From Gemmatimonadales bacterium (GTDB lineage: Bacteria > Gemmatimonadota > Gemmatimonadetes > Gemmatimonadales > GWC2-71-9), in contig DATEHG010000069.1 in NCBI GenBank assembly GCA_035279705.1, positions 6,091 to 70,090 on the forward strand: a DNA stretch of 64,000 nt, in the 5' to 3' direction. The position numbers and the translations under genes were made by a program. This document shows, one piece after another, positions 7,946 to 44,675 of this stretch. Under the pieces are notes generated by a model that was not told where the DNA came from, did no database searches, and was given only the letters and a program-made list of their open reading frames with translations. The number at the start of each line of letters is the position of its first letter. Within the stretch, counting starts at the first letter, position 1.

Positions 7946-7978
7946 CCACCCCACTTCCCTCAGCCCCGTGATGCTCCC

Positions 7979-26843: not shown

Positions 26844-27353
26844 TCAGTGGATGGCGCATTCCACCGGGCAGCGCGCCGTCGGGCAGGTGCCCTCGTCGCA
26901 CAGCCGGCAGTAGCGGTCGGCCTGTTCCCGGGTCCGCGTCATGGCGGCGAGCAGCTTTTCGGTGAGCAGTTCCAGCTGGCGGCGTTCGCGGCCGGTCAGG
27001 GAGGCCAGGGGGCCTTCGATCACCTTGCGCCGCTCGGCGAGCAGCGCGCGCATGGCCTGGCGCCCGGCCGTGGTGAGCTGAAGGCTCACCGACCGGGCGT
27101 CGGCGCCGGCAGCCCGGACCACCAGGCCGTCGGCTTCCAGCCGGTCGACCAGCCGGACCGTGCCCGAATGCGACAGCGACAGGGCGGGGCGGAGCGCATC
27201 GATCGTAAGGCCGGGATAAGTGCCGATGACGACCAGCGCCGCGGGCGCCGATGCGCCATGGGCGGCGGCGTTTTCGGTGGCCAGGCGGAGCTCATCCCCC
27301 AGGGCGAGGGCCAGGGCTCCGAGCAGGTTGGCGGAACGGGCGTCAGCACTCAT
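26844..27353 (-). CDS. MarR family transcriptional regulator with C-terminal Cys-rich tail
   Basis: 169-aa ORF with a winged-HTH region (LSLSHSGTVRLVDRLEADGLVVR). The tail is RYCRLCDEGTCPTARCPVECAIH (5 Cys). Confidence 0.8.
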   Translation of the reverse strand: MSADARSANLLGALALALGDELRLATENAAAHGASAPAALVVIGTYPGLTIDALRPALSLSHSGTVRLVDRLEADGLVVRAAGADARSVSLQLTTAGRQAMRALLAERRKVIEGPLASLTGRERRQLELLTEKLLAAMTRTREQADRYCRLCDEGTCPTARCPVECAIH

Positions 27354-27395: not shown

Positions 27396-28487
27396 TCAGG
27401 CGGGCTGCGGTTCCCCCTTCACGGTGCGGTAGACGTACGCGGGGAGCTGCTCCGGCACCTGGAGCGCGCCGGTGATGAGATCGTGGCGCGGGGAAAGAGT
27501 GCAGACAGGGTCGGTCGCCGCGGCGTCGCCGGTCAGGGCAAAGGCCTGGCAGCGGCAGCCGCCGAAGTCGGTGTGCTTCCGGGGACAGGAGCGGCAGGGC
27601 TCCTGCATCCACGCGTCGCCTCGGAAGGCATTGAAAATGGGTGATTCCCGCCAGATGGCGCCAAGGCTCTGTTCCCGCACATTGACGAACTGCAGGTGGG
27701 AAATCTGCGTGGCGCCGTGGCACGGCAGCGCCTTGCCGTCCGGCGTGACCAGGATGTAGACCCTGCCCCATCCCGCATAGCAGGCCTTGGGGTAGGTCTC
27801 GTAGTAATCCGGCAGCACGTAGAGAATCTGCATCTGGCCCCGGTACCGCTCGATCGCCGCCGCGGCGATCGGCCGCGACCGCTCGACCTGCTCCCGCGTC
27901 GGCATCAGCGCCGCCCGGTTGGTGAGCGCCCAGCCGTAGTACTGGGTGTTGGCCAGCTCCAGCCGGTCCGCGCCGAACTCGGCGGCCATCGCGATGATCG
28001 CCTCGAGATGATCGAGATTGCCGCGGTGCAGCACTACGTTCACCGAAAAGGCGAGACCCAGTTCCCGCACCAGCGCCGCCGCCTCCCGTTTCTGCTTCAC
28101 CGACCGGATGCCCGCGATCTTCTCGGCATTGGCGGTGTCGGCGTCCTGGAACGAGATCTGGATATGGTCGAGCCCGGCGGTCTTGAGCCGCTCGGCCCGC
28201 GCCCGGGTCAGGCCGAGGCCCGAGGTCACCAGAGTGGTGTACAGCCCCTCGGAGCGGGCGTGCCCGACCAGTTCCTCCAGGTCCTTCCGCACCAGCGGTT
28301 CCCCGCCAGACAGCCCAAGCTGCAGCACACCAAGCTCCCGCGCCTCGGTCAGCACCCGCTTCCACTGCTCGGTGGTGAGTTCGGCCTCGGCGCGGCTCAT
28401 CTCCAGTGGATTGGAGCAGTAGGGACAGTGCAGCGGGCAGCGGTACGTCAGCTCCGCCAGCAGCGTGGTGGGCAGCAGGTCAGCCAC
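27396..28487 (-). CDS. pqqE: PQQ biosynthesis radical SAM/SPASM protein PqqE
   Basis: 363 aa. CPLHCPYCSN radical-SAM cluster motif and a C-terminal SPASM cysteine set (…CRSCPRKHTDFGGCRCQA…). The GTG start overlaps the pqqD stop by 8 nt. Confidence 0.95.
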   Translation of the reverse strand: MADLLPTTLLAELTYRCPLHCPYCSNPLEMSRAEAELTTEQWKRVLTEARELGVLQLGLSGGEPLVRKDLEELVGHARSEGLYTTLVTSGLGLTRARAERLKTAGLDHIQISFQDADTANAEKIAGIRSVKQKREAAALVRELGLAFSVNVVLHRGNLDHLEAIIAMAAEFGADRLELANTQYYGWALTNRAALMPTREQVERSRPIAAAAIERYRGQMQILYVLPDYYETYPKACYAGWGRVYILVTPDGKALPCHGATQISHLQFVNVREQSLGAIWRESPIFNAFRGDAWMQEPCRSCPRKHTDFGGCRCQAFALTGDAAATDPVCTLSPRHDLITGALQVPEQLPAYVYRTVKGEPQPA

Positions 28488-28753
28488 GGCTGGTCACCAG
28501 ATCGCGGCGGGACAGGTCGTTGAGATACTCGATCACGTCGGCCGAGACGTCGGTCCCGTACTGCTCGGCAAGGGTGCCTGAAATTTCGCGCACCGTCCGC
28601 TGCCCGTCGCACAACTCGAGGATCGCGGCGCCCGTGTCGTTGATGAACATCGCGCCCTCCGGATAGAGCAGGACCCGGCGCTGGCGGACCCGGTCGAAGT
28701 CGATCCGCGCCAGGCGCCAGAGGCTGGGCCGTGAATCGGGGCCGATATTCACG
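28480..28753 (-). CDS. pqqD: PQQ biosynthesis peptide chaperone PqqD
   Basis: GTG 28753 overlaps the pqqC stop (GTGA). 91 aa: …RVLLYPEGAMFINDTGAAILELCDGQRTVREISGTLAEQYG…. Confidence 0.85.
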
Positions 28754-29510
28754 CCTGTCCGGGCTCCAGGTAGGCGTGATGAATGTTGTCGATCAGGGCC
28801 CAGAGCATTTCCAGCTTGAACGCGAGTGCCCCGAACGCCTTTCGCTGGCTGTCCACCGTGGTGCAGTGCTGCTGCACGATCGACAGGCCGTGCTTGACGT
28901 CTCTCGGCGCCTGGACCAGCCGGCTCTTGAAGTAGTCCAGCGCTTCCGGCGGGATCCAAGGGTAATGGCGGGGAAAGGCTTCGATGCGCTCGCCGTGGAT
29001 GCGGGGCGCGAACAGTTCGGTGAGTGACGAAGCGCAGGCGGTGACCCAGTCGTTGTTGCGGCAGAAGGTGACGTAGGACTCGCAGATGAGGCGCACTCCA
29101 GGGAGGACGTGGCGCTCGTCCTCCATCTCCTCGCGCGGCACGCCGAGGGCCACACCGAGACGGATCCACAGTTCGATGCCGCCGGTGCCCGGGGCTCTGC
29201 CATCGTGGTCCACGATCCGCTGGATCCACTCCCGGCGCACTTCGGGGTCAGGGCAGTTGCTGAGGATCGCCGCGTCCTTCCGCGGCACGACCCGCTGGTA
29301 GGCGAGGCGGTTGGCGACCCACCCCTGGAACTGGCGCTGGGTGAGTTTGCCTTCGTACATCAGGCGGTGGAATGGATGGCTGACGTAGTACGACCCGCTG
29401 AATGAGCGGAGCGCCGCCTCCAGGGCTTCGGGGGAAAGAGGCCGGTCCAGCGTCGGTATTGGAGGCGCGGGTGGCGCCGCCAGGAGTGAGGCGTTGAGGG
29501 TGGCCGTCAT
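28749..29510 (-). CDS. pqqC: Pyrroloquinoline-quinone synthase PqqC
   Basis: 253 aa with family-typical strings: YYVSHPFHRLMYEGKLTQRQFQGWVANR, ILSNCPDPEVRREWIQRIVDHDG and YFKSRLVQAPRDV. Confidence 0.95.
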   Translation of the reverse strand: MTATLNASLLAAPPAPPIPTLDRPLSPEALEAALRSFSGSYYVSHPFHRLMYEGKLTQRQFQGWVANRLAYQRVVPRKDAAILSNCPDPEVRREWIQRIVDHDGRAPGTGGIELWIRLGVALGVPREEMEDERHVLPGVRLICESYVTFCRNNDWVTACASSLTELFAPRIHGERIEAFPRHYPWIPPEALDYFKSRLVQAPRDVKHGLSIVQQHCTTVDSQRKAFGALAFKLEMLWALIDNIHHAYLEPGQA

Positions 29511-29558
29511 CCGTCGGTTCCGGGAAAGTTGCGCCGGAGCAATGTGGCGCTGGAGGCT

Positions 29559-29594
29559 GAAAATACGAACGGGGCCCGCCAGTCAGCGGGCCCC
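29559..29594 (-). terminator. Strong hairpin plus U-tract immediately after pqqA (attenuator between pqqA and pqqC)
   Basis: Minus strand GGGGCCCGC-UGACUG-GCGGGCCCC followed by GUUCGUAUUUUC. It begins 19 nt after the pqqA stop. Confidence 0.7.
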
Positions 29595-29612
29595 GCTCGG
29601 TGTGGCTTCTGC

Positions 29613-29687
29613 TTAGAGCGTGGCCACGTAGGCGGTGACTTCCATCGTTACCGCGACCACTTCGGCTTCGGGCTTCGTCCAGGTCAT
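29613..29687 (-). CDS. pqqA: PQQ precursor peptide PqqA (24 aa; not listed as its own entry, buried in track ORF 29613..29855)
   Basis: MTWTKPEAEVVAVTMEVTAYVATL carries the conserved E-x-x-x-Y (EVTAY) crosslink motif. GGAGG lies 7 nt upstream of the ATG. Confidence 0.85.
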   Translation of the reverse strand: MTWTKPEAEVVAVTMEVTAYVATL

Positions 29688-29795
29688 CGTGTTGCCTCCG
29701 AGTTGAGCCAGAAAGTTCGGGGAATCCCCGTGGTGTCCATACCAGGGCGGATCTCCCCGGCGAAGCCTGTGGGATGTCCGCAGGCGTATGGCAGG

Positions 29796-29813
29796 ATGCA
29801 CGTCGTGTGCCCG
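29796..29813 (-). promoter_or_regulatory. Candidate sigma-54 (-24/-12) promoter upstream of pqqA
   Basis: The minus strand reads cGGGCAC-ACGAC-GTGCAT, against the consensus TGGCAC-N5-TTGCA(T). GG and GC are at the correct 10-nt spacing. The element is about 110 nt upstream of the pqqA ATG. Confidence 0.6.
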
Positions 29814-29907
29814 GGTGATGACCTCCGGATGGAATTTCAAGCCGTTGCAATACAACAGCTTGAAGTCCAGCCAATCACTCGATAGAAAGCCCGGGGGTGG
29901 GGCAGAT

Positions 29908-29944
29908 GGGTGAAATCACCCAGCGACTGGGTCATCTCACCCAG
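29908..29944. promoter_or_regulatory. Three overlapping palindromes (candidate enhancer/UAS for the adjacent bEBP)
   Basis: GGGTGA-AA-TCACCC (29908..29921), ACCCAG-CGA-CTGGGT (29918..29932) and CTGGGT-CATCTC-ACCCAG (29927..29944). They lie about 100-150 bp upstream of the -24/-12 element and directly after the regulator stop codon. Confidence 0.45.
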
Positions 29945-29947
29945 TGG

Positions 29948-31345
29948 TCAACCCTGCAGCCCGTACTTCTTGAGGCGATAGCGCAGCGTGTCCCGGCTGA
30001 TGCCGAGTCGCTGGGCGGCCCTGGTCTGGTTGCCGGCGGCGTCGCGGAGTGCGCGCTCCAGCATGCTCTTCTCGAGTTCGGCCAGGTCCATCCCCTCGGT
30101 CACCACATCCCACTCCGCCGTGGCCGAGATCCCCGCGGGGGGTGCACCACCAACGGCGGGTCCCGCGGCCGGCATGTTGAGCGAGAGGTGGTCCACCCCG
30201 ACGAGCTCGCCCTGGCTCCAGAGCACCGCGCGCTCGATGACATGGCTGAGTTCGCGCACGTTCCCGGGCCAGGGGTACCGCTTGAGCTGCAACTCGGCGT
30301 CGCTGTCGAGCCGCCGCGCCGGTTTGCCGTACTTGGTGCTGAACTGCCTCAGGTAGTGCTGAGCCAGGGCCAGGACATCATCGCCGCGCTCCCGCAGGGG
30401 CGGCAGGCGCAGCAGGATGACCGCCAGACGGAAATAGAGATCCTTGCGGAACTGCCCGCCCTTCGATTCGTGCTCGATGTCCCGGTTAGTGGCGGCCAGG
30501 ATCCTCACGTCGATCTTGCGGTCCCGGATGCCGCCCACGCGGCGCACGGTCCGCTCCTCGATGGCGCGGAGCAGCTTCCCCTGCAGCGCCAGTTCGAGGT
30601 CGCCGATTTCATCGAGGAAGATGAATCCTCCCTCGGCGGCCTCGAACAGGCCGAGCTTCGACTCCTTGGCGTCGGTAAAGGCGCCGCGCTCGTAGCCGAA
30701 CAGCTCGGCCTCCATCAGGTTGGCGGGAAGGGCGGTGCAGTTGACATCGATGAAGGGCTTCGCGCTGCGGGGCCCTGACGTGTGGATGGTCCGGGCCACC
30801 AGACCCTTCCCGGTGCCCGTTTCACCCGTGATGAGCACGGGTGGCGTTTCCGCCAGGGCGGCCACCTCGCGGGCCCGTTCCAGCACGGCCTTCATGGCCG
30901 GCGAGCTGCCCAGCACGCTGCCGAAGGATTCTTCTTGCGAGGCACGCCGCCGGTAGAACGACAACTCCTGCTTGAGCTGGCTCGTCTCACGGGCCCGGTC
31001 GGCCAGCAGCTTGAGCTCCTCCAGGTCCACCGGCTTCTTGAGATAGTCGAAGGCGCCGAGCTTGACCGCCTCGACCGCGCCTTCGATGGTGCCGAACGCC
31101 GTCATGACCACCACCGGCGTGGCGGCGTCGAACTCCCGGACCCGTTTGAGCAGGTCGATGCCGCTCATGCCCGGCAGCCGCAGGTCGGTGAACACCACGT
31201 CGGGCCGCAGCCGGTCGAGCAGCTCGACGGCTTGCTCCGCGGAGGAGGCGACCTCCGCCTCGTAACCCGAGGCCTCGAGAAAGGCCTTGATGGCCTTGGC
31301 AAGATTTCGCTCGTCGTCGACGACGAGGACGGTCGGGCCACTCAT
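29948..31345 (-). CDS. NtrC-family sigma-54-dependent response regulator (REC-AAA+-Fis HTH)
   Basis: 465 aa. REC (VVDDE…VFTDLRLPGMSG…KKPV), Walker A GETGTGKG, GAFTDA loop (a GAFTGA variant), Walker B FLDEIG, WPGNVREL, and a C-terminal HTH QTRAAQRLGISRDTLRYRLKKYG. Confidence 0.9.
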   Translation of the reverse strand: MSGPTVLVVDDERNLAKAIKAFLEASGYEAEVASSAEQAVELLDRLRPDVVFTDLRLPGMSGIDLLKRVREFDAATPVVVMTAFGTIEGAVEAVKLGAFDYLKKPVDLEELKLLADRARETSQLKQELSFYRRRASQEESFGSVLGSSPAMKAVLERAREVAALAETPPVLITGETGTGKGLVARTIHTSGPRSAKPFIDVNCTALPANLMEAELFGYERGAFTDAKESKLGLFEAAEGGFIFLDEIGDLELALQGKLLRAIEERTVRRVGGIRDRKIDVRILAATNRDIEHESKGGQFRKDLYFRLAVILLRLPPLRERGDDVLALAQHYLRQFSTKYGKPARRLDSDAELQLKRYPWPGNVRELSHVIERAVLWSQGELVGVDHLSLNMPAAGPAVGGAPPAGISATAEWDVVTEGMDLAELEKSMLERALRDAAGNQTRAAQRLGISRDTLRYRLKKYGLQG

Positions 31346-32892
31346 GCGGTTCTCGACTCCAAGGGTTCGGCCTCCGGTGCCGTCGCGGCGGGGAAATACA
31401 GTCGCGCGGTCGTGCCCTGGCCCGGCCGGCTCGACAGTTCGAGGCGGCCGCCATTCTGCTCGACGAAGCGCCTTGCCATCGTGAGCCCGAGTCCGGTGCC
31501 GTCCGGCCGAGTGGTAAAGAACGGGTCGAACACCGACTGCATCACCGATTCGGGAATGCCGGGGCCGCTGTCCGCGATGGCGATGACAACTTCACCTCCG
31601 CCCCCGGGCAGCTCCACCTCGCCGACCGAAACCCGGAGTGTTCCGCCACCTGGCATCGCCCCCAGCGAATTGGCCACGATCTCGGTGATGGCCTGATCGA
31701 GGCGGACGGGATCGACGGCGATCTCGGCGACTCCGTCCGGCAGGTCGATCTCGAGCTTCACCCGGCGCTCGGTAAGCAGCTGAGCCAGCGAGTTCAGCAG
31801 GCTGTGCACCAGAACTCCCGGGCGTTCCCGGAGTGGATGTACCGGCGCCGGACTCGAGAAGGCCAGCAGGTGGGTAATCCGCCGATCCAGCCGGTCCACC
31901 TCGTCGATCATCGAGCGGAGTTGCTCGCCGGCCGCCGGACTTTCCGGGTGCCGGAGCACGAGCTGCGCCGAGGCCCGGAGGCTGGCCAGTGGATTGCGGA
32001 GGCCATGCGCCACTCCAGCTGCCATCTCGCCGATCGAGGCAAGTTTTTCGGACTGCACCAGGCGGGCCTGGGCCTGCTGCAAGTCCGTCAGGCGTGCCTC
32101 GAGTTGCGTGTTCAGGCTCTCGAGGTCCGCCCTCGACCGGCTGAGCCGGTCGGTCATGCCGGCAAAGGCGCGGGCCAGGTCACCGATCTCGTCTCTGGCC
32201 TCGACTCCGACCGGCCGCTCCATCCCTCCCGATCCCGCGGCGGCCATGGCGCCCTGCAGCTCGGTGAGCGGCTGCACCAGGCTGCGGGAAATCATCCAGG
32301 CCGCGAGCGGTCCGAGCACCAGGGTGAGGGTCAGGATCCAGAGCAGCGCCCGACGCTCGCCGTCGACGATCTCCTGGACTCTGGTGAACGCGGTGTGCAG
32401 GCTGTACTCCCGGGCCCGCCGGTAGATCTCGTGATTCACCTCGGTCAGCGCGGGCTGCAGTTTGAACTTGAGTTCCTGTCGCGCCAGCTCGTAGGCCTCG
32501 GCGTTGCGGTGCTTGTCCATGAGGGTGAACACGCTGTCGCCCACTTCCTGGAAATGCTTCTGGATGACCCGCACGCCGTCGGCCAGTCCCTTCTCGTCCG
32601 GCCGCAGTTCGGCCGTCCAGCGGTCAAACCAGTAGTCCACTACCTCGCCATGCGTCTTGAACTCGGCCCGCGCGTTTGGTTCGTGTCCGGAGAGCGCCTG
32701 CCAGAGCACTTCGCCCTGGTTGAACATGGCGGTCTCGACCTCCGCGTAAGTCCGGGTGCGCCCGAGACTCACACCCAGGGCGTCGAGGGCGTGCCGTTCG
32801 AGCGCGTTGCTGCGGATCGCCGCCGCCGCCACCAGGGCCACGGGCAGGGTCATCAGGGCAAAGCCCAGCAGCAGGCGACGGCGGAACGTCAT
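31342..32892 (-). CDS. HAMP-domain sensor histidine kinase
   Basis: I prefer ATG 32892 (MTFRRRLLLGF…), which overlaps the upstream stop (ATGA). Two TM segments flank an approximately 170-aa outer domain, followed by HAMP, the H-box EMAAGVAHGLRNPL and HATPase (…DSGPGIP…GTGLGL…). Its stop overlaps the RR start (ATGA). Confidence 0.9.
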   Translation of the reverse strand: MTFRRRLLLGFALMTLPVALVAAAAIRSNALERHALDALGVSLGRTRTYAEVETAMFNQGEVLWQALSGHEPNARAEFKTHGEVVDYWFDRWTAELRPDEKGLADGVRVIQKHFQEVGDSVFTLMDKHRNAEAYELARQELKFKLQPALTEVNHEIYRRAREYSLHTAFTRVQEIVDGERRALLWILTLTLVLGPLAAWMISRSLVQPLTELQGAMAAAGSGGMERPVGVEARDEIGDLARAFAGMTDRLSRSRADLESLNTQLEARLTDLQQAQARLVQSEKLASIGEMAAGVAHGLRNPLASLRASAQLVLRHPESPAAGEQLRSMIDEVDRLDRRITHLLAFSSPAPVHPLRERPGVLVHSLLNSLAQLLTERRVKLEIDLPDGVAEIAVDPVRLDQAITEIVANSLGAMPGGGTLRVSVGEVELPGGGGEVVIAIADSGPGIPESVMQSVFDPFFTTRPDGTGLGLTMARRFVEQNGGRLELSSRPGQGTTARLYFPAATAPEAEPLESRTA

Positions 32893-34274
32893 GCGCGTCC
32901 GGGGAAGGTGCCGAGCCCGGCATCCTTCCACCAGCGATAGAACGTGGCCCGGCCGATGCCCAGCGTTCGCGCCGCCGCGCTGCGATTGCCACCATGACCG
33001 GCCAGGGCCCGGAGCAGCAGCATCCGCCGCTCGGCCTGACCCGGTTCACCGATCACCAGCGGCACATGGGCCTCGGACTGCCGCACCTCGGCCGGAAAAC
33101 TTTCCGGTCCCAGCTGCGCCGGCCGCGAGATCCGGCCGCGCCGGCGGAGCGCCAGCGCGTGCCGCACGGCGCTCTCGAGCTCACGCACGTTGCCCGGCCA
33201 GCCGTACGCGGTCAGCATCGCGAGGGCCGCCGCGGAAATGGTCACGCCGGAGTCGGCGGCGTGCAGGGCGAGGAAATGCTCGACCAGGCGAGGCAGGTCC
33301 GACAGCCGCTCGCGGAGCGGCGGCACCGCGATCCGCACCACCTTGAGCCGGTAGTAGAGTTCCTCGCGCATCCGTCCGGCCTTCACTTCGCTCTCGAGGG
33401 GGCGGCGCGAGGTGGCGAGCAGGCGCACGTCCACCGCCCGGGGCCGGCTTTCCCCCATGCGGCGGAGCGAGCCGCTCTGCAGGACTTCGATGAGGCGGCT
33501 CTGGGATGCCGCCGGCAGGAGCGCGGGCTCCTCGATCACGAGGGTTCCGTCACGCGCTGCCTCGATCCGCCCGGGCACGCGGCCATGGCCGAACAGCTCC
33601 CCCTCCAGATCTCCATGCTCAAGACTGCCGCAGTTGAACACGATGAGCGGGTGCTGCGCGCGCCCGCTGCCGGCGTGAATCAGCTGGGCCACCAGCTCCT
33701 TGCCGGTGCCCGGCTCGCCTTCGATCACAACGGGGGCATCGCTGGGGGAGACGAGGCCGATGAGATCGTACAGGGCCAGCATCAGCGGATGGGCACCGAT
33801 CAGGTTGCCGAAGCCGCTCCGGCTGCCCACGGCGGTCTGCTGCCGACAGAGCACGGCCAGGTCACGGATGATGACCAGGATGCCGGCGCGCTTCGACTCA
33901 TCCTGCCACGAGGTCACCATGATTTCGGTGGCCCGGCGGTTGCCCTGGGCGCAGAGGACCTCGGTCACCAGTCTGGCGGGAACACCGGTATCGCGTACCC
34001 GCCAGGCATCGCGATTGAGGGCTGGCTCGAGACGCAGCACGTCCCGCCAGTGGCGGCCGATCGCGGTCTCGGGGGAGAGGCCGGTCACCCGGCTCGCGGC
34101 CGGGTTGTGCAGCACCACGAGCCCGTCGGCATCGACCGCGATCGCGCCGTCGTCGGTGGCGCCGATCCAGGCCTGCAGGATTCCGGGGTCCGCCGGCCGT
34201 GGGGCAGACGCGGTCCCGCCGCCCGGCGCGGCAGGATCCCCGGAACCGCCGTGCGACCCTTGCCGCAGCATCAC
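32889..34274 (-). CDS. PAS-AAA+-Fis HTH regulator lacking the GAFTGA sigma-54 contact loop
   Basis: 461 aa. PAS (…DDGAIAVDADGLVVLHNPAASRVTGLS…), Walker A GEPGTGKE, then ELFGH-GRVPGRIEAARDGTLVIEE where canonical bEBPs have ELFGHEKGAFTGA…GGTLFLDEI. WPGNVRELE follows, and the HTH is RSAAARTLGIGRATFYRWW. The start (GTG 34274 or ATG 34271) overlaps the pqqB stop. Confidence 0.85.
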   Translation of the reverse strand: MMLRQGSHGGSGDPAAPGGGTASAPRPADPGILQAWIGATDDGAIAVDADGLVVLHNPAASRVTGLSPETAIGRHWRDVLRLEPALNRDAWRVRDTGVPARLVTEVLCAQGNRRATEIMVTSWQDESKRAGILVIIRDLAVLCRQQTAVGSRSGFGNLIGAHPLMLALYDLIGLVSPSDAPVVIEGEPGTGKELVAQLIHAGSGRAQHPLIVFNCGSLEHGDLEGELFGHGRVPGRIEAARDGTLVIEEPALLPAASQSRLIEVLQSGSLRRMGESRPRAVDVRLLATSRRPLESEVKAGRMREELYYRLKVVRIAVPPLRERLSDLPRLVEHFLALHAADSGVTISAAALAMLTAYGWPGNVRELESAVRHALALRRRGRISRPAQLGPESFPAEVRQSEAHVPLVIGEPGQAERRMLLLRALAGHGGNRSAAARTLGIGRATFYRWWKDAGLGTFPGRA

Positions 34275-35176
34275 GCCTCGAACCGCATGCCGTCATCCCC
34301 CACGACCCAGCCGGCAGCCTCGACTGCCGTGCGTTCCTGCGACCGCTCGACCAGGACCGGATTGCTGTTGTTGATGTGAGTGTAGACCCGCCGGGACGGC
34401 GCGAGCGGTGTCACGATATCGAGGCTTCCACCGGTGCCACTCATCGGCAGATGCCCCATGGCAGCCGCGGGACGGTCACTGATGCCGAGATCCATCAGCT
34501 CGCGCTCGGACCAGAAGGTGCCGTCGAAGAGGAGCAGCGTCGCATTCCCGAGGCGCTCACGCAAATCGGCGTCGACACCGCCGCACCCCGGCACGAACAG
34601 GAGCCGGGCCCGGTTCGGGCCGCGGACGTCGAGGCCCACCGTGTGGCCGGGCAGATCACGACGGGCAAAGCGGGGCGGATCGCCCGGAACCCCGAACGCC
34701 TCCGCGATAAGACCGCTGGGCGCGCCGTCGCGCAGCAGCAGTGGTACCGCCTGGCCGAGGCCAAGCTCGTGCCAGCGGACCGCCGCAAAGGCGCTGGTGA
34801 CCGGCAGCAGCCGCGAATCCTCCTCGAGCACCGCCTTGACCGCGCCGGTCGACCACAGCTGGAGGGTTCTCGCTTCGCGCAGCAGCGCCAGGCCCATCGT
34901 GTGGTCGAGCTCGGCGTCGGTGGTGACAACGCCTTCGAACCCCGCGTGCCGGACACCCTCGGGGATTCCGTTCTGCAGGCGCCCGAGCTGGTCGCGGACA
35001 TCCGGTGAGGCGTTGAGCAGGAACCAGTGACGGCCGTCGGCGCTCACCGCCGCCGACGACTGGCTGCGGGGGTGGGCGCGCGCAGGATCGGCCCGGCCGA
35101 TGCGGCAGACCGGGCACCAGCAATTCCACTGGGGAAATCCGCCGCCTGCCGCGGTTCCGAGCAGGATGACGTGCAT
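34271..35176 (-). CDS. pqqB: PQQ biosynthesis protein PqqB (metallo-beta-lactamase fold)
   Basis: 301 aa: MHVILLGTAAGGGFPQWNCWCPVCR… , …SAAVSADGRHWFLLNASPD… and …YTHINNSNPVL…, all typical of PqqB. Confidence 0.9.
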   Translation of the reverse strand: MHVILLGTAAGGGFPQWNCWCPVCRIGRADPARAHPRSQSSAAVSADGRHWFLLNASPDVRDQLGRLQNGIPEGVRHAGFEGVVTTDAELDHTMGLALLREARTLQLWSTGAVKAVLEEDSRLLPVTSAFAAVRWHELGLGQAVPLLLRDGAPSGLIAEAFGVPGDPPRFARRDLPGHTVGLDVRGPNRARLLFVPGCGGVDADLRERLGNATLLLFDGTFWSERELMDLGISDRPAAAMGHLPMSGTGGSLDIVTPLAPSRRVYTHINNSNPVLVERSQERTAVEAAGWVVGDDGMRFEA

Positions 35177-35212: not shown

Positions 35213-38209
35213 TCAATCCCGGATGGTCTGGTGCGGCGCGCTGGTGCGAGACTGCGGACTGCCGGGGGGGCCGTTGAGCAGTTCGCGCACCTTGAGGCGG
35301 AGCGACTCGGGCGTGAACGGCTTCTGCATGAAACCATACCCCGCACGATCCTCCCGGCGCACCAGGTCATCGGGGCTGTAACCCGAGATGAAGAGCACTC
35401 GCAGCCCGGGAAGCGTGGTGGAGAGCTCCGCCGCGAGGTCGGGTCCACGAAGGCCCGGCATCACCACGTCGGTCACGAGCAGCGCGATCGATTCCCGATG
35501 CACCGTGGCGAGACGCCGGGCTTCGGATGCTTCAGCGGCTTCGAGAACGCGATAGCCTGCCGAACTCAGGGTGCGCTGGGCCACGGCGCGAACCGGTGCC
35601 TCGTCTTCCACCAGCAGGATGGTTTCGTGGCCGCCCTGGATCCGCGGCGCCTCGACCGGCCGGTCGCCGGACTCTTCGGGTCCGGTCGCGGGAAGACGGA
35701 CTCGTACGATCGTGCCGCTGCCCGGGCTGCTCTCCAGTTCGATGGAGCCGCCCGCCTGCTGCACGATGCCGTAGACGGTGGCTAGGCCGAGGCCCGTGCC
35801 GCGGCCCAGCTCCTTGGTCGTGAAGAAGGGCTCGAACGCCCGGGCCTGGACCTCCGGTCCCATGCCGACGCCGGTGTCCTCCACCGTGAGGAGCACGGCG
35901 GGCTGGGTTTCGGCGCCGACCGTGCGCGTGTGACTGGTCCGGATGGTCAGGGTCCCGCCCCGTGGCATCGCGTCGCGCGAGTTGACCGCCAGATTCATCA
36001 CGACCTGTTCCAGGTGTCCCGGGTCGGCCAGGACCCAGGCGCCGGAGCGTTCCAGGTGCGTCACCAGCTTGATCTCCTCGCCCAGCAGGCGACGGAGCAG
36101 GTGCGACATCTGGGTGAGCAGGGCGTTGAGTTCCACCGGCCGCGGCTGCGCCGACTGGCGGCGGCTGAAGGTGAGCAGCTGCCGGGTGAGGCTCGCTCCC
36201 CGCTGCGCCGCGGTCTCGATCTCGCGGGCCTCGTTCCGCAGCGGCGAGCCGTCGGGCAGGTCCTCGGCCAGCAGCGCCGCCGTGCCCAGGATCGCGGTGA
36301 GGAGGTTGTTGAAGTCGTGCGCGATTCCGCCCGCAAGGAGGCCCACCGCCTCCAGCTTCTGTGACTGGCGCAGCTGATCCTCCAGCCGGCGGCGCTCGAC
36401 TTCCGCCGCCAGTCGCTCGGTGATGTCGCGCATGTGGCAGATGACGCCGGCGCCTGCCGGCGTGGGCTCGAGCGAAGAACCCACCAGCTCGGTGACCGCC
36501 CATCCGCCGTCCTGCCGGTGGATCCGCATGATCGCGGTGACCGCGCCGTTCGCTTCCCGCGTGGCCCGCGACAGCGCCGCCGCCGCGGTCTTGCGATCCT
36601 CGATGTGAACAAGATCCAGCACCGGACGCCCCTTGAGCGTTTCGGGGGCGTAACCGGTGAGGCGCTGCGTGGAGGGGCTGGCGAACTGGATCACCAGTCC
36701 GGGATCCAGCAGGACGATGGCATCGCTGGCGTGCTGCACGATCGAGCGGAAATACGCCTCGCTTCGGGCCAGCGCCTGCTCCGAGGCTACGCGGTTCGAA
36801 ATGTCAGTGAACGCGATGACCGCTCCCTCGGACCGGCCGTCGCGGACCAGCGGCGTGGCCTGGAACTCGATCGGAAAACCTCGGCCGGCGCGATCCCAGA
36901 ACCAGTCACGGCCCGACAGCACACTTCCCTCGGTACGGACCTGCACCATGGGGCAGGTCTCCGGCGGATAGGGCGACCCGTCCGCATGCGAATGGTGGAA
37001 CAGGGCGTGCGCATCGTGACCGATCAGCTCCTGGGGGGCCCGGAAGCCCAGCATCTGTGCCGCCGCCGGATTGGCAAACATGATCCGCCCCGCTGCGTCG
37101 AGCCCGTAGATCCCCTCCGCGGTGGAATCGAGCAGGCTCCGCACCTGGCCCTCCGAGGTGCGTACCTGGTGCAGCAGTTCCGTCAGCGTCTGCCGGTTCC
37201 ACCACTCGAGGCCCCAGGTGAGTCCCACCAGCACCACGGCCTGGATCACCAGGTACGGCCACAGGTCGACGGCGAGATTGTCCCGCAGCAACCACCCCGC
37301 GACCACGACCGCCAGCATGGCCAGGGCCGGGATCGTGAGCTCGAACGCCCGGGGGCGCTCGCGACGGATCGGGTATTCCGCGCCCGCTGCCGCCGGCTCA
37401 GGTTGCGTCGCCGCATCGGCCCAGGCCGCCCAGAACGTGCACGCCAGCAGCACCAGCCAGAGGGGGGCTGTGACGTAGTTGGGAATCTTGGTGGGGGAGA
37501 GCAGCTGGATCGGATAGGTCGAGCGGGCCAGGAAGTCGACGGCGACTCCGGCGACAAGCACCCGGAGCGGAAGCCCCGGCGTGCGGTCCTCGAGCCAGAT
37601 GGTGAGCAGTCCGAAGATCAGCGCGGTGACGGCCAGCGCCGGATACAGAATGGCGGCGCCGATCTGGAGCGGATCGAAGCCGCGCTGGCTCATCGGCGCG
37701 GCGAACACGAAGGTGTTCACCATGCCCGCCGAGCAGACCAGGATGCCGAGATAGTACAGCTGCCGGACCGTGACGCGGCGGGATGGCGCGGCGGGCCGGA
37801 AGGCGACGAAGCCCGCGATGTAGCAGGCGGGCACGAGCAGATAGAAGAAGTCGGCGGCGGTGGGAAAGGGCCAGTAGCGGTGCTGGACGAGCTCGAACCA
37901 GTCCCACACGAGCATGCCCAGGCCGAACACCGCACTGCCGGCGCCGAAGCAGCTCCAGGCAAATCGGAGATGCGGAGTCGTGTGCTGGCGGGCGGTCAGC
38001 CAGGCCCGGGTGGCCGCGGCGATGGCGGCCAGGGTCCAGAAGAGATCGACCCAGAGAGAAAACCGGGACCGCGTGTCCCACAGGAAGTAGCCGCCGACGG
38101 TGAAGGCGGCCACATAGATCAGCGAGCCGGCTGCGACCAGCCACCGGGTCCGCCTCGGGTCCACCCCCATTGCCGCAGTCCTCCCCCGCTCCGGGTTCGA
38201 CCTCGACAC
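35213..38209 (-). CDS. Hybrid sensor histidine kinase: approximately 10-TM N-terminal domain, 3 PAS, HisKA-HATPase, C-terminal REC
   Basis: 998-aa ORF (alternative start at 38170). About 330 aa of membrane domain, then PAS repeats, the H-box LAGGIAHDFNNLL, the HATPase motif GVGMG…GTGLGL, and REC (LLVEDE…LVTDVVMPGLRG…QKPF). Confidence 0.9.
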   Translation of the reverse strand: MSRSNPERGRTAAMGVDPRRTRWLVAAGSLIYVAAFTVGGYFLWDTRSRFSLWVDLFWTLAAIAAATRAWLTARQHTTPHLRFAWSCFGAGSAVFGLGMLVWDWFELVQHRYWPFPTAADFFYLLVPACYIAGFVAFRPAAPSRRVTVRQLYYLGILVCSAGMVNTFVFAAPMSQRGFDPLQIGAAILYPALAVTALIFGLLTIWLEDRTPGLPLRVLVAGVAVDFLARSTYPIQLLSPTKIPNYVTAPLWLVLLACTFWAAWADAATQPEPAAAGAEYPIRRERPRAFELTIPALAMLAVVVAGWLLRDNLAVDLWPYLVIQAVVLVGLTWGLEWWNRQTLTELLHQVRTSEGQVRSLLDSTAEGIYGLDAAGRIMFANPAAAQMLGFRAPQELIGHDAHALFHHSHADGSPYPPETCPMVQVRTEGSVLSGRDWFWDRAGRGFPIEFQATPLVRDGRSEGAVIAFTDISNRVASEQALARSEAYFRSIVQHASDAIVLLDPGLVIQFASPSTQRLTGYAPETLKGRPVLDLVHIEDRKTAAAALSRATREANGAVTAIMRIHRQDGGWAVTELVGSSLEPTPAGAGVICHMRDITERLAAEVERRRLEDQLRQSQKLEAVGLLAGGIAHDFNNLLTAILGTAALLAEDLPDGSPLRNEAREIETAAQRGASLTRQLLTFSRRQSAQPRPVELNALLTQMSHLLRRLLGEEIKLVTHLERSGAWVLADPGHLEQVVMNLAVNSRDAMPRGGTLTIRTSHTRTVGAETQPAVLLTVEDTGVGMGPEVQARAFEPFFTTKELGRGTGLGLATVYGIVQQAGGSIELESSPGSGTIVRVRLPATGPEESGDRPVEAPRIQGGHETILLVEDEAPVRAVAQRTLSSAGYRVLEAAEASEARRLATVHRESIALLVTDVVMPGLRGPDLAAELSTTLPGLRVLFISGYSPDDLVRREDRAGYGFMQKPFTPESLRLKVRELLNGPPGSPQSRTSAPHQTIRD

Positions 38210-38257: not shown

Positions 38258-39844
38258 CTAGTGGGCCGCACCCCCGCCGCTGCGGACGCGCCCGGTCTTG
38301 AAGAGCAGCAGCAGCGGAAGCGAGAGGATGAAGGTGGCACCCATGATCAGGAAGACCTTTTCGAACGCGATCATCGAGGCCTGGCGCTCGACCCGGAAGT
38401 CGAGCACCGCCATGGCCCGCTGATGCGCCAGCGAAATATCCGCCCCGAGGGCCTGGAACCGGCGGGTCAGCCCGTCGACCAGCGGCTGGACCTGCGGAGC
38501 CGCGGTTTCGACGTGGGTCCTGAGCGCCTCGCGGGCATTCTCCCGGAACCGGGTGATGAGCGTGGCCGAGATGGCGATCCCGAAACTGCCGCCGAGCTGG
38601 CGGCTCAGGTTGTAGAGGCCCGTGCCCTGCGGAATCCGCCCCGGCGCGAGGTTGGCCACCGCGACGCCGGTGAGCGGAACGAAGATGAACCCGAGGCCGG
38701 TGCCGCGGAGAATCATCGGCAGCAGGAGATCGGCCGTACCCGAGTCCGTGGTGAGGTGGGCGTGCAGCCACATCGACCAGCCGAACAGTCCCACGCCGAA
38801 CACGATCATGGCCCGGGCGTCCACCTTGTTCCCCAGCCGGCCGACCACGGCCATCGTCACGGCGCTCGCAATGGCGCCCGGCAGGATGACCCGGCCGGTG
38901 TCCCAGGCTCCGAAGCCGAGCAATGACTGCAGGAACACCGGCAGGACGAACACGCTGGAATAGAGCGCAAAGCCCAGGACGGCGCCGAAGATGACGGCGG
39001 CCGCAAGCTGCCGGTCCTTGAGGATGTGAAGGTCCACCACCGGGTGCTCGGTGCGGAGCTCGTGCCAGATGAACAGCACGATGCTGGCGCCCGCCACGAT
39101 CGTCTCGGCCAGGATTTCCTTCGACGCAAACCAGTCCTTCGACTCACCCCGCTCGAGCAGGATCTGCAGCGCGCCGATGCCCAGGATGAGGAGCCCCAGG
39201 CCGATCCAGTCGACCGACTCGCCCCGTTCCACCTGGTGCGCCGGCTCCGGCACATAGCGCCAGGTCATCATGGCGGCCAGGGCGCCGAGCGGAAGATTGA
39301 TGTAGAAGATCCAGGGCCAGGAAAAGTTGTCGGTCAGCCAGCCGCCGAGCGTGGGGCCCAGCGTGGGGCCGACCATCACGCCCATGCCGAAGATGGCCAT
39401 GGCCTCTCCGCGCTCCTCGACCGGGAAGACGTCGAACAGAATGGCCTGGGCCGTCGAGATCAGGGCTCCGCCCCCCAGCCCCTGGATGACCCGCCACCCC
39501 ACCAACCCTTCGAGGGTGTGCGCGTGACCGCAGAAGAAGGAGGCGGTGGTGAAGAGAATGATCGAGCCGGTGTAGTAGTTCCGCCGGCCGAACCGGTCGG
39601 CGAACCAGCTGGTCACCGGCAGCACGATCACGTTGGCCACGATGTAGCCGGTACTCACCCAGGCGATCTCGTCCAGCGTGGCGCCGAGATTCCCCATCAT
39701 GTGCGGGATGGCGACGTTCACGATGCTGGTGTCCACCAGCTCGAGCACGCTCGCCATCACCACCGCAATGGCGATGATGTAGCGGGCCTGGTAGACCGCG
39801 TCGCGATCGACGACGCGTCGGGCGGGGAGGACCAGCGTGGCCAC
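38258..39844 (-). CDS. MFS efflux transporter, DHA2 (EmrB/QacA) family, 14 TMS
   Basis: 528 aa: …LDTSIVNVAIPHMMGNLGA…WVSTGYIVANVIVLPVTSWFADRFGRR…. Confidence 0.9.
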   Translation of the reverse strand: MATLVLPARRVVDRDAVYQARYIIAIAVVMASVLELVDTSIVNVAIPHMMGNLGATLDEIAWVSTGYIVANVIVLPVTSWFADRFGRRNYYTGSIILFTTASFFCGHAHTLEGLVGWRVIQGLGGGALISTAQAILFDVFPVEERGEAMAIFGMGVMVGPTLGPTLGGWLTDNFSWPWIFYINLPLGALAAMMTWRYVPEPAHQVERGESVDWIGLGLLILGIGALQILLERGESKDWFASKEILAETIVAGASIVLFIWHELRTEHPVVDLHILKDRQLAAAVIFGAVLGFALYSSVFVLPVFLQSLLGFGAWDTGRVILPGAIASAVTMAVVGRLGNKVDARAMIVFGVGLFGWSMWLHAHLTTDSGTADLLLPMILRGTGLGFIFVPLTGVAVANLAPGRIPQGTGLYNLSRQLGGSFGIAISATLITRFRENAREALRTHVETAAPQVQPLVDGLTRRFQALGADISLAHQRAMAVLDFRVERQASMIAFEKVFLIMGATFILSLPLLLLFKTGRVRSGGGAAH

Positions 39845-39848
39845 GGAA

Positions 39849-40961
39849 CTACCGGGTCTTGATGGTCACGACCACGGACATGCCGGGCCGGAGCGGGAAC
39901 CTGGGATCGGCATGATCCACCGCGATCCGCACCGGCACCCGCTGCACCACCTTGGTGAAGTTGCCGGTGGCGTTGTCGGGCGGCAGCAGCGCGAAGCGGG
40001 CGCCGGTCGCCGGGCTGATGCTCTCGACGTGCCCCTGGAACTCCTTGTCGGGGTACGCGTCCACCTTGAACGTGGCCGCGTCCCCCGGGGTCACGTTCTC
40101 GATCTCGGTTTCCTTCAGGTTGGCCGTGACCCAGATGGTGTCCGCCGGCAGCAGCGACATCATCGTCTGACCCGGTGAAACCAGTCCGCCCACTTCCACC
40201 GTGCGCCGGGCCACGACACCGTTGGCCGGCGCCGTGACCACCGCGAAGCTGAGCTGGAGTCTGGCATTCGCCACGTTGGCCTCGGCCGCAACCAGGCGGG
40301 CATCCGCCACCCGGGCCCCCGCGGAGTAGGCGGTGACCTGCTGCTGGCTCGCGGCCGCGCTCTTCTTGATCGCCTCGAGATTGGCCGCGGCCGCGTCGGC
40401 CGTGGCCTGGGCCCCGTCGAGCTGCTGCGCCGAAATGATCTGGCGCGCGGCCAGCGTCTTGTACCGCTCCAGGTCCGCCTGCGCCTTGCGCGAGTTGGCC
40501 TCGGCGGCGGCGATGGAGCTCTGCATGCTGGCGGCCTGGGCCTCGCTCGCCCCGAGCTGCGCCGCGGCCTGCCCCGTGCCCTTGCCATGTCCGGCCTGCG
40601 CCGCGGCGAGTTCGGCCTCCGCCTGGCGGAGCTTCACCTCGAGATCACGGTGATCGAGCACGACGAGCGTATCGCCCTGCTTGACCGGCTGGTTGTCGTC
40701 CACCCGTACCTCGGCCACGAAGGCCTGGATCCGGGCGGCGACCGGGGTGACGTGACCCTCGATCTGCGCGTTGTCGCTGGAGACCCGGTTCCGGGAAGCG
40801 AGGTACTGGCGCAGGCCCCATCCGGCGACGGCGAGGGCGAGCAGGCCGGCGATCAGAGCGGCCGGTGGCTTGCGCCGGGCCTTGGGCGCCGCCGGTACGG
40901 CGTCGCCCGCGGACTCGACGGTCAGCGGCTGGGGACGGGAAAGGGGAGTGGCCATGGTCAT
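39849..40961 (-). CDS. HlyD/EmrA-family membrane fusion protein
   Basis: ATG 40961 or 40955. N-terminal TM anchor, a long coiled-coil (…LRQAEAELAAAQA…), a barrel-sandwich region and a C-terminal …NFTKVVQRVPVRI…. Confidence 0.9.
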   Translation of the reverse strand: MTMATPLSRPQPLTVESAGDAVPAAPKARRKPPAALIAGLLALAVAGWGLRQYLASRNRVSSDNAQIEGHVTPVAARIQAFVAEVRVDDNQPVKQGDTLVVLDHRDLEVKLRQAEAELAAAQAGHGKGTGQAAAQLGASEAQAASMQSSIAAAEANSRKAQADLERYKTLAARQIISAQQLDGAQATADAAAANLEAIKKSAAASQQQVTAYSAGARVADARLVAAEANVANARLQLSFAVVTAPANGVVARRTVEVGGLVSPGQTMMSLLPADTIWVTANLKETEIENVTPGDAATFKVDAYPDKEFQGHVESISPATGARFALLPPDNATGNFTKVVQRVPVRIAVDHADPRFPLRPGMSVVVTIKTR

Positions 40962-40974
40962 TCTCTCTTTCGTG

Positions 40975-42291
40975 CTATTGCAGGTCATCCAGGATGCCGA
41001 GCGCCCGGTAGGCACTCAGACGGGCGACACCGAGCGCGACTCGGGCCTGAATCAGAACGTCTCGCGACACCACCACACTTACCTGCGCGTTGCTGGTCTC
41101 GATGCTGCTGGCGATGCCGGCCTTGAACCGCTCGCCGGCCTGGTCCAGTTCCAGCGCTGCCAGGCGCAAACGATCCTGGGCCAGCCCCACCTGCTGCCGC
41201 GCCGCCTGCAGGTCCAGCAGCGCCTGGCGGGTTTCCGTTTCCACCTGGCGCTCGGCGTCATGCAGGCGCAACCGCTGGGCGTCCACCTTGGCATCCTGCT
41301 CGGAGGCGCGGGTCTGCCGCTTGAGTCCGTCGAAGATCGGCACCGACACCTGGACCCCTACGGCGTACGTCCCGCTCAGCCGGTCGAGCGTGTTGCCGCT
41401 CTGGGTGTACTGACCCATGGCGCCGATGCTGGGAAGGTTCTCGTACTTGATGGCCTTGAGGCTTCGCTCGGTGACTTCGAGCCGCTGCTGCTCGGCCATG
41501 ACCTCGGTGCGATGCGCCAGCGCAAAGGCGACGGCACTGTCCGGATCGGACAGCACCGCATCGCCCGACGGCGCCAGCGAATCGGTCAATTCCACGGAGG
41601 CCGACGGCGGGAGGTCGAGCGCCCGGGCCAGTTCGAGCCTGCTCCGGTCCTTCAGGTTGCGGGCGATGACCAGCTGGGTCTTCACCGCGGCAAAGTTCAC
41701 GCTGCTCCGGGTCGAATCGATCGGCGGGCTCACCCCGGTAAGCACCAGCTGGCGGGACTGATCCAGCAGGTCCGCCGCGATCACGCTGTCCGCCAGACGC
41801 GCCGTGACTGCCTCGGCGGAGCCCAGCGCACGGATGTAGGCGATGCCGGCAGTCACGGCGCCCTGCTCACCGGCGGTGCGGGCATCGAGACCGGCGGCCT
41901 TGACCGAGTCCGACGCCGCGTGATTCCGGGCCCAGAGGCTCGCGTTGTAGATCGACTGCGTGGCCTGGACCTGGAAGGACCAGACATCGAACGGGTCGGT
42001 GATGCCCGTGACGCCGGGGAAACCGAACTCGTCGAAGTTGAGCGTCTGGTGCGCCACACGGGCATAGCCCCCGACCGTGGGCAGCAGGTCGCCCCGCTTC
42101 TGGCCCTGGCGGGCCTCGGCGATCTGCACATTGATCTGCGCCAGTTCGGCGCCGATGGCCTGCGTGCGTCCCAGCTTCACGGCCTCGATCAGCGACAGGC
42201 GCGAGGGCGTCAGGCTCGCGACCGGCACCTGCGCGGACAACGGCGCGGCGAGGAGCAGCGCGGAGAGAGCGAACTTCAACGGGCGGTGCAT
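40975..42291 (-). CDS. TolC-family outer membrane efflux protein
   Basis: 438 aa with a signal peptide and the duplicated OEP repeat architecture. Confidence 0.85.
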   Translation of the reverse strand: MHRPLKFALSALLLAAPLSAQVPVASLTPSRLSLIEAVKLGRTQAIGAELAQINVQIAEARQGQKRGDLLPTVGGYARVAHQTLNFDEFGFPGVTGITDPFDVWSFQVQATQSIYNASLWARNHAASDSVKAAGLDARTAGEQGAVTAGIAYIRALGSAEAVTARLADSVIAADLLDQSRQLVLTGVSPPIDSTRSSVNFAAVKTQLVIARNLKDRSRLELARALDLPPSASVELTDSLAPSGDAVLSDPDSAVAFALAHRTEVMAEQQRLEVTERSLKAIKYENLPSIGAMGQYTQSGNTLDRLSGTYAVGVQVSVPIFDGLKRQTRASEQDAKVDAQRLRLHDAERQVETETRQALLDLQAARQQVGLAQDRLRLAALELDQAGERFKAGIASSIETSNAQVSVVVSRDVLIQARVALGVARLSAYRALGILDDLQ

Positions 42292-42292
42292 G

Positions 42293-44575: not shown

Positions 44576-44675
44576 GCGCGTTGCCGCAGCATTCGCGGAG
44601 GGCGGGAGGCGGCTCTGGCCGGCTCCCGCCCTCCGTTCCCTTTTCCGGCCACCCGGTCCGCCTTACGCTTCAGCC

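Follow-up and report, generated by a model that had tools for sequence, protein, structure and literature searches.

The genes for the synthesis of pyrroloquinoline quinone (PQQ) are known from classical pqqABCDE(F/G) operons such as those of Klebsiella, Methylorubrum and Pseudomonas. The locus described here lies in a 64,000-nucleotide stretch of DNA from a Gemmatimonadales bacterium (contig DATEHG010000069.1 of assembly GCA_035279705.1, positions 6,091 to 70,090; henceforth the window, by which we always mean the whole stretch). It resembles the classical operons in its PqqA to PqqE products, the E-X3-Y motif of the precursor peptide, a hairpin that follows pqqA and tight overlaps between genes. 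By contrast with them, its pqqB lies 4.6 kb upstream with three regulator genes between pqqB and pqqA, its pqqA is preceded by a predicted sigma-54 promoter, and there is no pqqF in the operon. The pqq genes of Pseudomonas are co-regulated in trans with the ped/exa cluster, probably via the LuxR-type regulator AgmR/ErbR (PMC12997753), and there too PQQ synthesis stands under a cascade with sensor kinases and response regulators. That regulator, however, acts in trans, belongs to another family and is not a sigma-54 activator, whereas the window encodes an NtrC-type pair in cis, with enhancer-type dyads and a -24/-12 promoter directly on pqqA.

This pair, a sensor histidine kinase (HK) and a response regulator (RR), can be compared with NtrB/NtrC, AtoS/AtoC and ZraS/ZraR, with which it shares the REC-AAA+-Fis-type helix-turn-helix (HTH) architecture of the regulator, the HisKA/HATPase core of the kinase and the placement of dyad enhancers, in tandem and some 100-130 bp ahead of a -24/-12 promoter; its GAFTDA loop is also that of FlgR. 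It differs from such systems in scoring below all named family cut-offs, in having a sensor without a Pfam family and restricted to Gemmatimonadota, and in its target, the gene of a cofactor precursor peptide. The third regulator (henceforth EBP1) has the architecture of an enhancer-binding protein (EBP) and is similar to the sigma-70-dependent regulators TyrR, DhaR, HupR and VpsR (PMC3162934) in that it keeps PAS, AAA+ and HTH domains and has lost the sigma-54 contact loop; it is, however, not an orthologue of these proteins and shares one operon with an intact EBP. Every component of the locus is of a known kind, while the combination and the target are new. A first-pass annotation, made from the sequence, had been aware of no described pqq operon with its own EBP two-component system between pqqB and pqqA; we likewise found no description in the open-access literature of a cis-encoded NtrC-type pair at pqq, of a sigma-54 pqqA promoter or of the Gemmatimonadota arrangement. 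Judging from sequence comparisons, we consider it likely that the window holds a PQQ locus with a dedicated, adjacent signalling module, in which the HK-RR pair, the dyads and a sigma-54 promoter drive pqqA.

The two-component pair, promoter and dyads at pqqA

Genes were called with Pfam and TIGRFAM/NCBIfam models at their curated cut-offs (Table 1). The relatives of the locus were collected in a scan with one genome per species, which gave 80 Gemmatimonadota loci (numbered L001 onwards) with a PqqB 59-76% identical to that of the window, and their layouts were determined by tblastn of the window proteins onto these loci together with a search for PqqA-like peptides. Four loci are cut off at pqqB by a contig end and are uninformative; in 74 of the 76 informative ones the HK-RR pair adjoins the pqq genes.

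The genes, their order (pqqB-EBP1-HK-RR-pqqA-pqqC-pqqD-pqqE), their location on the minus strand and their overlapping junctions are just as the first-pass annotation had described them, as judged by the profile models and by reading the junctions directly. Specifically, the pqqB/EBP1 junction is GTGATG (the GTGA overlap is kept in the two closest relatives), the EBP1/HK and HK/RR junctions are both ATGA, and the GTG start of pqqD, assigned from the reading frame, overlaps the stop codon of pqqC (GTGA). The gap of 102 nt between pqqA and pqqC is too small to hold pqqB. The contiguous pqqA-B-C-D-E order is not found in the window; such contiguity defines the canonical operon layout, not the pathway. 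The PqqA peptide scores just above the thresholds of both of its models (PF08042, 22.2 bits with a cut-off of 21.1; TIGR02107, 21.1 bits with a cut-off of 20) and is near-identical across about 70 loci. The G+C content of the window is 65-71%, and its closest relatives are throughout metagenome-assembled genomes of Gemmatimonadota, mostly of Gemmatimonadales.

Table 1 Features of the pqq region, with positions counted from the first letter of the window
Feature	Position	Strand	Evidence and remarks
marR-family gene	26844..27353	-	Pfam; own sigma-70-like promoter at 27386-27359
pqqE, radical SAM/SPASM	27396..28487	-	TIGR02109, 542 bits (cut-off 381)
pqqD	28480..28752	-	TIGR03859, 73.5 bits (cut-off 46)
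pqqC	28749..29510	-	TIGR02111, 309 bits (cut-off 240)
Hairpin with T-rich tail after pqqA	29566..29599	-	15-bp stem with 12 GC pairs; -34.1 kcal/mol, z = -5.0
pqqA, 24-aa precursor peptide MTWTKPEAEVVAVTMEVTAYVATL	29613..29687	-	PF08042, TIGR02107; E-X3-Y motif
-24/-12 promoter of sigma-54 type, GGGCACacgacgTGCA	29797..29812	-	GGGCAC-acgacg-TGCA; begins 125 nt upstream of the pqqA ATG
IHF-like core CAA-N4-TTG	29838..29847	-	Between dyads and promoter; partly conserved 'aa....tT' columns
Dyad 2, TGGGTGAAATCACCCA	29907..29922		Perfect consensus; start at 111 nt 5' of the -24 GG; 21 bp from dyad 1
Dyad 1, TGGGTCATCTCACCCA (as on + strand)	29928..29943		1 mismatch; starts 132 nt upstream of the -24 GG
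NtrC-type response regulator (RR)	29948..31345	-	Pfam and NCBIfam: REC, AAA+ (GAFTDA), HTH_8
Sensor histidine kinase (HK)	31342..32892	-	Pfam HAMP, HisKA, HATPase; TM1 and TM2 by hydropathy
EBP1 (PAS-AAA+-HTH protein)	32889..34274	-	Pfam PAS, Sigma54_activat, AAA_lid_14, HTH_8
pqqB	34271..35176	-	TIGR02108, 330 bits (cut-off 245); head of the regulator genes
Hybrid PAS-PAS-HisKA-HATPase-REC kinase	35213..38209	-	Pfam

The first-pass annotation had placed a promoter in front of pqqA, without naming its class; a promoter sequence does lie there, and we can now specify it as a -24/-12 element of the sigma-54 type. When upstream regions were anchored on pqqA, the pattern GGCA[CT]-N6-TGC was found 71-127 nt 5' of the ATG in 69 of 73 pqqA copies, with a background in the same loci of 0.011 per 200 nt, and it also precedes pqqA where this gene sits between pqqD and pqqE. 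The call draws its weight from this position and from conservation within otherwise unconserved intergenic DNA.

Further upstream, 64 of 68 loci have a 16-bp dyad (TGGGTGA-N2-TCACCCA) whose start is 102-139 nt from the -24 GG; in 29 loci there are two copies about 18-22 bp apart, and the intergenic sequence that flanks the dyads is unconserved among loci. The two dyads of the window are the sole matches of that quality (0 and 1 mismatch) in its 64 kb. The pqqA of the window has, in sequence, both a -24/-12 promoter and upstream enhancer-type sites. In loci that have pqqA inserted between pqqD and pqqE, at a distance of 2.3 kb from the RR gene, the dyads as well as the promoter stay with pqqA; since they travel with pqqA away from the RR gene, pqqA is the gene that they appear to control. 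The dyads are absent in two loci that have a PAS regulator and lack the HK-RR pair (L083 and L086), where GAGAC repeats are found instead, which argues that the dyads belong to the RR. We thus regard the dyads as predicted enhancer sites bound by the RR.

A third copy of TGGGTGA-N2-TCACCCA was found in 45 of the 68 loci, at +50 to +53 nt from the -24 GG and inside the pqqA leader. These loci all fall within L003-L079 (e.g., 9822-9837 in both L038 and L054), and the window, L001 and L002 have no such copy. Its distance to the -24 GG is nearly fixed and its distance to the ATG variable; a site for the regulator downstream of the promoter or a stem in the 5' RNA are both conceivable. A search of the pqqA leader against Rfam returned nothing credible (sX6, 14 bits with a cut-off of 40). 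The CAA-N4-TTR sequence between dyads and promoter might, on slight grounds given the low information content of this motif, be a site for integration host factor (IHF).

Between pqqA and pqqC lies a strong hairpin, and equivalent, equally strong hairpins were found 3' of pqqA in L003 and L005. A hairpin at this place is the classical pqq arrangement, in which the pqqA transcript is in excess over the transcript of the downstream enzyme genes. By analogy, the hairpin of the window is a predicted attenuator or terminator ahead of pqqC, and pqqCDE would be expressed by read-through.

The kinase, the response regulator and EBP1

The kinase consists, according to hydropathy and Pfam, of a first transmembrane helix (TM1), a periplasmic helical domain of ~155 aa at kinase residues 27-181, a second transmembrane helix (TM2) and HAMP, HisKA and HATPase domains. 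The first-pass annotation had proposed that profile searches of the outer domain could reveal a ligand-binding family; no Pfam match to the sensor domain was found even at E = 10. Its AlphaFold2 model is all helical, with four long helices (pLDDT 80.8), and the best Foldseek matches, all of them weak (E >= 1.8e-3, TMq 0.34-0.66), were to NarQ sensor-TM-HAMP fragments and to chemoreceptors. The model thus weakly suggests a four-helix bundle resembling NarQ and chemoreceptor sensors, and because there is no Pfam match and the fold matches are weak, no ligand family can be named. Homologues of the sensor are confined to Gemmatimonadota, and in a reverse check the more divergent of them, where looked up, were likewise encoded at pqq loci. 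The kinase is not an orthologue of AtoS (204 bits, cut-off 646) or ZraS (173 bits, cut-off 479).

In the RR, the receiver Asp can be read in VVFTDLRLPG and the Lys in DYLKKP. Its AAA+ loop is GAFTDA rather than GAFTGA, as in 69 of 70 orthologues, and the Walker A sequence GETGTGK is present in 70 of 70. GAFTDA is the variant of the functional activator FlgR (PMC3162934). The RR therefore combines the features of the NtrC family, i.e., a REC Asp, an AAA+ domain with a functional-type variant of GAFTGA and an HTH_8 domain, although it is not an orthologue of AtoC (454 bits, cut-off 714), NtrC (413, cut-off 559) or ZraR (351, cut-off 760). We propose it as the putative activator of the pqqA promoter.

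We aligned EBP1 with the RR and with 120 homologues (50-100% identity). Compared with the RR and with family members that retain GAFTGA, EBP1 has a deletion of 9 residues that include this motif (ELFGHGR---------VPGRIEAARDGTLVIEE), and its Walker B reads VIEE; it thus lacks the intact GAFTGA loop and the Walker B (hhhhDE) that mark a sigma-54 activator. GAFTGA is retained in only about 10 of the 120 homologues; most have a degenerate loop and a Walker B in which DE has become DR, and the EBP1 of L002 combines a degenerate loop with an Ala in place of the Walker B Asp. Since sister lineages of the family still retain GAFTGA, the decay appears to be recent and patchy. The HTH domain of the family, by contrast, hardly varies, and it is unlike the HTH of the RR. 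All 7 family members that we looked up are at pqq loci: 5 stand in front of HK-RR-(pqqA)-pqqBCDE, and 2, both retaining GAFTGA (L083 and L086), lie between pqqD and pqqA at loci without an HK-RR pair. The family therefore appears, in every case checked, to be specific to pqq loci. EBP1 is not an orthologue of TyrR (171 bits, cut-off 576) or DhaR (187 bits, cut-off 551).

EBP paralogues without GAFTGA (TyrR, DhaR and HupR) act with sigma-70, not sigma-54 (PMC3162934). The PAS protein had been offered by the first-pass annotation as a possible second input, but its role as a second sigma-54 activator is not borne out, because with the GAFTGA loop deleted EBP1 would be unable to contact sigma-54. 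Rather than activating the pqqA promoter, EBP1 most likely modulates expression as a DNA-binding protein, be it as a repressor or as a regulator of the sigma-70 type.

As to its possible sites, the sigma-54 promoter of pqqA in L083 and L086 (GGGTACgccgcTTGC in L083) comes after clustered GAGAC repeats (L083 9353-9576, L086 about 9341-9596). The GAGAC-N7-GTCTC dyad, likely the site type of PAS-EBPs at loci without the HK-RR pair, is not enriched in the window (22 found and 43 expected), and the region upstream of its pqqA has no GAGAC dyad. Just 5' of the -24 element, at 29813-29826, the window reads GGAGGTCATCACCC. Eleven loci have both EBP1 and the HK-RR pair. In 5 of these, TTGTCTCA lies 6-13 nt 5' of the -24 GG, and 3 carry CTGTATCA; at this place GGTCATCA is read in the window and in L002. 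Besides the window, the observation concerns the DNA just 5' of the -24 element in L065, L084, L085, L087 and L088. Of 65 loci that lack an EBP1 close by, a single one has GTCTC at that position. The GTCTC-type sequence that abuts the -24 element may thus be a candidate EBP1 site.

Rearrangement of pqqB and neighbouring genes

The dominant layout, HK-RR-pqqA-pqqB-pqqC-pqqD-pqqE, was found in 50 loci and in 5 more that are truncated by contig ends; with 2 loci in which an EBP1 homologue stands in front of HK-RR-pqqA-B-C-D-E, this makes 57 of the 80. A further 14 loci, truncated ones included, read HK-RR-pqqB-pqqC-pqqD-pqqA-pqqE, and 2 have pqqABCDE without a regulator within 1.3-1.5 kb. The order of the window, pqqB-EBP1-HK-RR-pqqA-pqqCDE, is found in 2 loci (L001 and L002; PqqB 75-76% identical), and pqqB stands at the head of the regulator genes only in these and in the window. 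One locus, L003 (PqqB 73% identical), is intermediate: it reads hybridHK-pqqA'-pqqB-HK-RR-pqqA-pqqCDE, with two pqqA copies and no EBP1. Across these different pqq layouts a TetR-OEP-MFP-MFS efflux operon is kept upstream, and because it stays the upstream neighbour, it was pqqB that moved and not the cassette.

This comparison indicates that, throughout the order, the adjacency of HK-RR and the pqq genes is the ancestral state, and that HK-RR-pqqABCDE is both the ancestral and the dominant layout. On the simplest history, a small clade that comprises the window, L001 and L002, with L003 as an intermediate, relocated pqqB to a place 5' of the regulators, probably as a pqqA-pqqB block, as the layout of L003 suggests; its unusual position is, on this evidence, a minor, clade-specific evolutionary rearrangement. 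The first-pass annotation had described a pqq locus interrupted by a regulator cassette and had proposed synteny as a check, with a lineage-specific insertion lacking conservation as a refuting outcome. Such lineage specificity is seen where pqqB stands, whereas the signalling module is conserved, and the picture of an interruption is not supported, as pqqB is the relocated gene.

The two pqqA copies of L003 (9872-9946 and 14035-14109) differ at two residues; the extra one, 5' of the relocated pqqB, is accompanied by a strong hairpin of its own but by no -24/-12 element. The 36-nt spacer between the hybrid kinase and pqqB has short stretches common to the window, L001 and L003, among them a CTTTCTT..GCCATG tail and GACTTGCGCC. 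As an intact copy of the post-pqqA terminator it was rejected (fold z = 0.03 in the window), and at most it is a decayed remnant of that terminator. About 215 nt upstream of the relocated pqqB, L001 carries TGGCACccgaaTCGC (9165-9195), with the right -24/-12 spacing and a weak -12; in the window, the matching DNA codes for part of the hybrid kinase.

The hybrid kinase is found in this position only in the window and L003, and marR has no tblastn match in the 80 loci. Neither is a conserved neighbour, and both were rejected as parts of the module; the role that had been suggested for the hybrid kinase upstream is thus not supported. In the relatives L081 (15768-17317), L083 (10926-12541) and L090 (13649-14951), an ABC transporter (ATPase and ABC-2 permease) directly follows or overlaps pqqE, where the window has marR.

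The efflux operon of the window (38258-42967, minus strand) encodes TetR, an outer-membrane factor, an HlyD-type adaptor and an MFS protein, and it is a conserved upstream neighbour of the HK-RR/pqq module in many Gemmatimonadales loci. Many loci of the dominant layout, such as L005 (5156-6748), have a further gene of ~500 aa between the MFS gene and the kinase; judged by eye from its HVDGAHG...DPHK motif, it resembles pyridoxal phosphate-dependent group II decarboxylases. At a distance of 9 kb from the pqq genes and next to a TPR protein, the window encodes a 927-aa tandem M16 peptidase (44517-47300, plus strand), which scores 76 bits with the PqqF model, below the cut-off of 320. The TPR/M16 pair is also near the pqq locus in L081, L082, L084, L085 and L087-L090, and the peptidase is a candidate for the protease that processes PqqA. 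The window has no gene for a PQQ-dependent dehydrogenase. An unrelated chemotaxis cluster (5606-13369) includes CheA, a HAMP-bearing methyl-accepting chemotaxis protein and a HEAT-repeat protein, among others.

Proposed control of pqqA and its alternatives

In the scheme that we infer from the gene identities, junctions, synteny, promoter and dyad conservation, the membrane kinase would sense a periplasmic signal via its putative four-helix-bundle sensor and phosphorylate the adjacent NtrC-type regulator. The RR would then bind the two tandem dyads that start 132 and 111 nt upstream of the -24/-12 promoter and spend ATP to open the sigma-54 holoenzyme complex, leading to transcription of pqqA. 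The hairpin after pqqA would pass part of the transcripts on to pqqCDE, such that the precursor peptide would exceed the enzymes. Meanwhile, pqqB would be co-transcribed, and probably translationally coupled, with the regulator genes and hence uncoupled from the sigma-54 promoter, and EBP1 would probably modulate expression by binding DNA. As far as sequence evidence goes, signal-gated, sigma-54-dependent transcription of pqqA, with pqqCDE reached by read-through of the hairpin, is strongly supported. This upholds the part of the first-pass annotation in which the kinase gates pqqA and the C, D and E genes, since synteny, the promoters and the dyads all tie HK-RR to pqqA; the added inputs through the PAS protein and the hybrid kinase are not supported.

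Several observations pull the other way. The -24 element of the window is GGGCAC, not TGGCAC, and its -12 element is GTGCA, not TTGCA; GGCAC-N6-TGC taken alone is not enriched in the window (4 found and 4.7 expected); and no RpoN box was found in the window or in the 88 fetched loci, although the single Gemmatimonadetes genome surveyed in 2011 has RpoN (PMC3372290 Table 1). We found no promoter for the pqqB-EBP1-HK-RR unit, whose 36-nt spacer forms only a weak hairpin. In addition, the HK-RR pair persistently adjoins the TetR/efflux operon, and on one divergent contig (L089), which ends soon after, part of an amidase gene takes the place of pqqA downstream of the RR gene, a dyad and a -24/-12 promoter.

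The last two points are also what would be expected if HK-RR mainly controlled another target, such as the efflux operon or a distant regulon, and the dyads were sites of another protein or RNA/terminator hairpins. The pair of L089 indeed stands beside efflux genes; the dyads of the window begin only 5 nt after the stop codon of the RR gene, and the third dyad lies within the transcribed leader, where an RNA role is conceivable. We nevertheless regard this explanation as unlikely. With a TetR of its own, the efflux operon is located further upstream on this strand, and in the window neither a dyad nor a -24/-12 element was found before it. As for hairpins, the half-sites of the dyads are conserved in sequence, beyond mere pairing, and a 7+7 palindrome with a 2-nt spacer and no T-tract would make a poor terminator; the dyads also keep fixed helical distances from the -24 element and accompany pqqA where it lies far from the RR gene. 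Still less probable, and in our view very nearly negligible, is the splitting of a canonical pqqABCDE operon by a recent insertion specific to this lineage, such that the cassette would have no dedicated role in PQQ synthesis and its adjacency would be incidental. The restriction of the exact gene order to the window, L001 and L002 is what such an event would leave behind, but HK-RR adjoins the pqq genes in nearly all informative loci and in several layouts, the sigma-54 promoter and dyads follow pqqA, and the conserved efflux operon upstream marks pqqB as the gene that moved. We also give little credence, only marginally more than to the insertion, to EBP1 as the real or a co-equal sigma-54 activator of pqqA that integrates a cytoplasmic PAS signal. 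Members that retain GAFTGA do stand directly upstream of pqqA in L083 and L086, in the absence of HK-RR and with a sigma-54 promoter and GAGAC-repeat sites, and the family was met at pqq loci without exception. Against this, the EBP1 of the window has lost the loop and has an altered Walker B, that of L002 is degenerate in both, few members keep GAFTGA, the GAFTGA-less TyrR, DhaR and HupR do not act with sigma-54 (PMC3162934), and the pqqA upstream region of the window is without a GAGAC dyad.

Beyond the dedicated HK-RR module, the observations could be joined into a wider reading, which we put forward tentatively and hold to be doubtful as a whole, of a phylum-specific, three-part Gemmatimonadales control module dedicated to a redox cofactor derived from a ribosomally synthesised and post-translationally modified peptide. 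Here, the four-helix-bundle kinase would sense an external cue relevant to PQQ (lanthanides, PQQ, or alcohol or sugar substrates), and the NtrC-type activator would act on the sigma-54 promoter of pqqA. The PAS-EBP would be, depending on the lineage, either the sole activator (GAFTGA intact, no HK-RR) or a decayed pseudo-EBP, and in its decayed form it would bind the GTCTC-type site abutting the -24 element as an anti-activator. If this were true, the place of pqqB in the regulator operon would mean that PqqB is constitutive and present before induction, or that it has a second, regulatory or moonlighting role.

The control of PQQ production is poorly understood outside a few Proteobacteria, whose regulators act in trans and in connection with clusters for alcohol oxidation. 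The Gemmatimonadales are an abundant soil order reported to have lanthanide-dependent PQQ enzymes (PMC10875860), and their pqq locus offers a compact regulatory unit that can be read from sequence: kinase, regulator, enhancer dyads, sigma-54 promoter and precursor gene. This opens the control of pqqA to direct testing; the small sensor domain suits ligand screens, and with the 16-bp motif the regulon could be delineated across complete genomes. The PAS-EBP family, in turn, is a natural series of an enhancer-binding protein losing its sigma-54 function at an unchanged locus.

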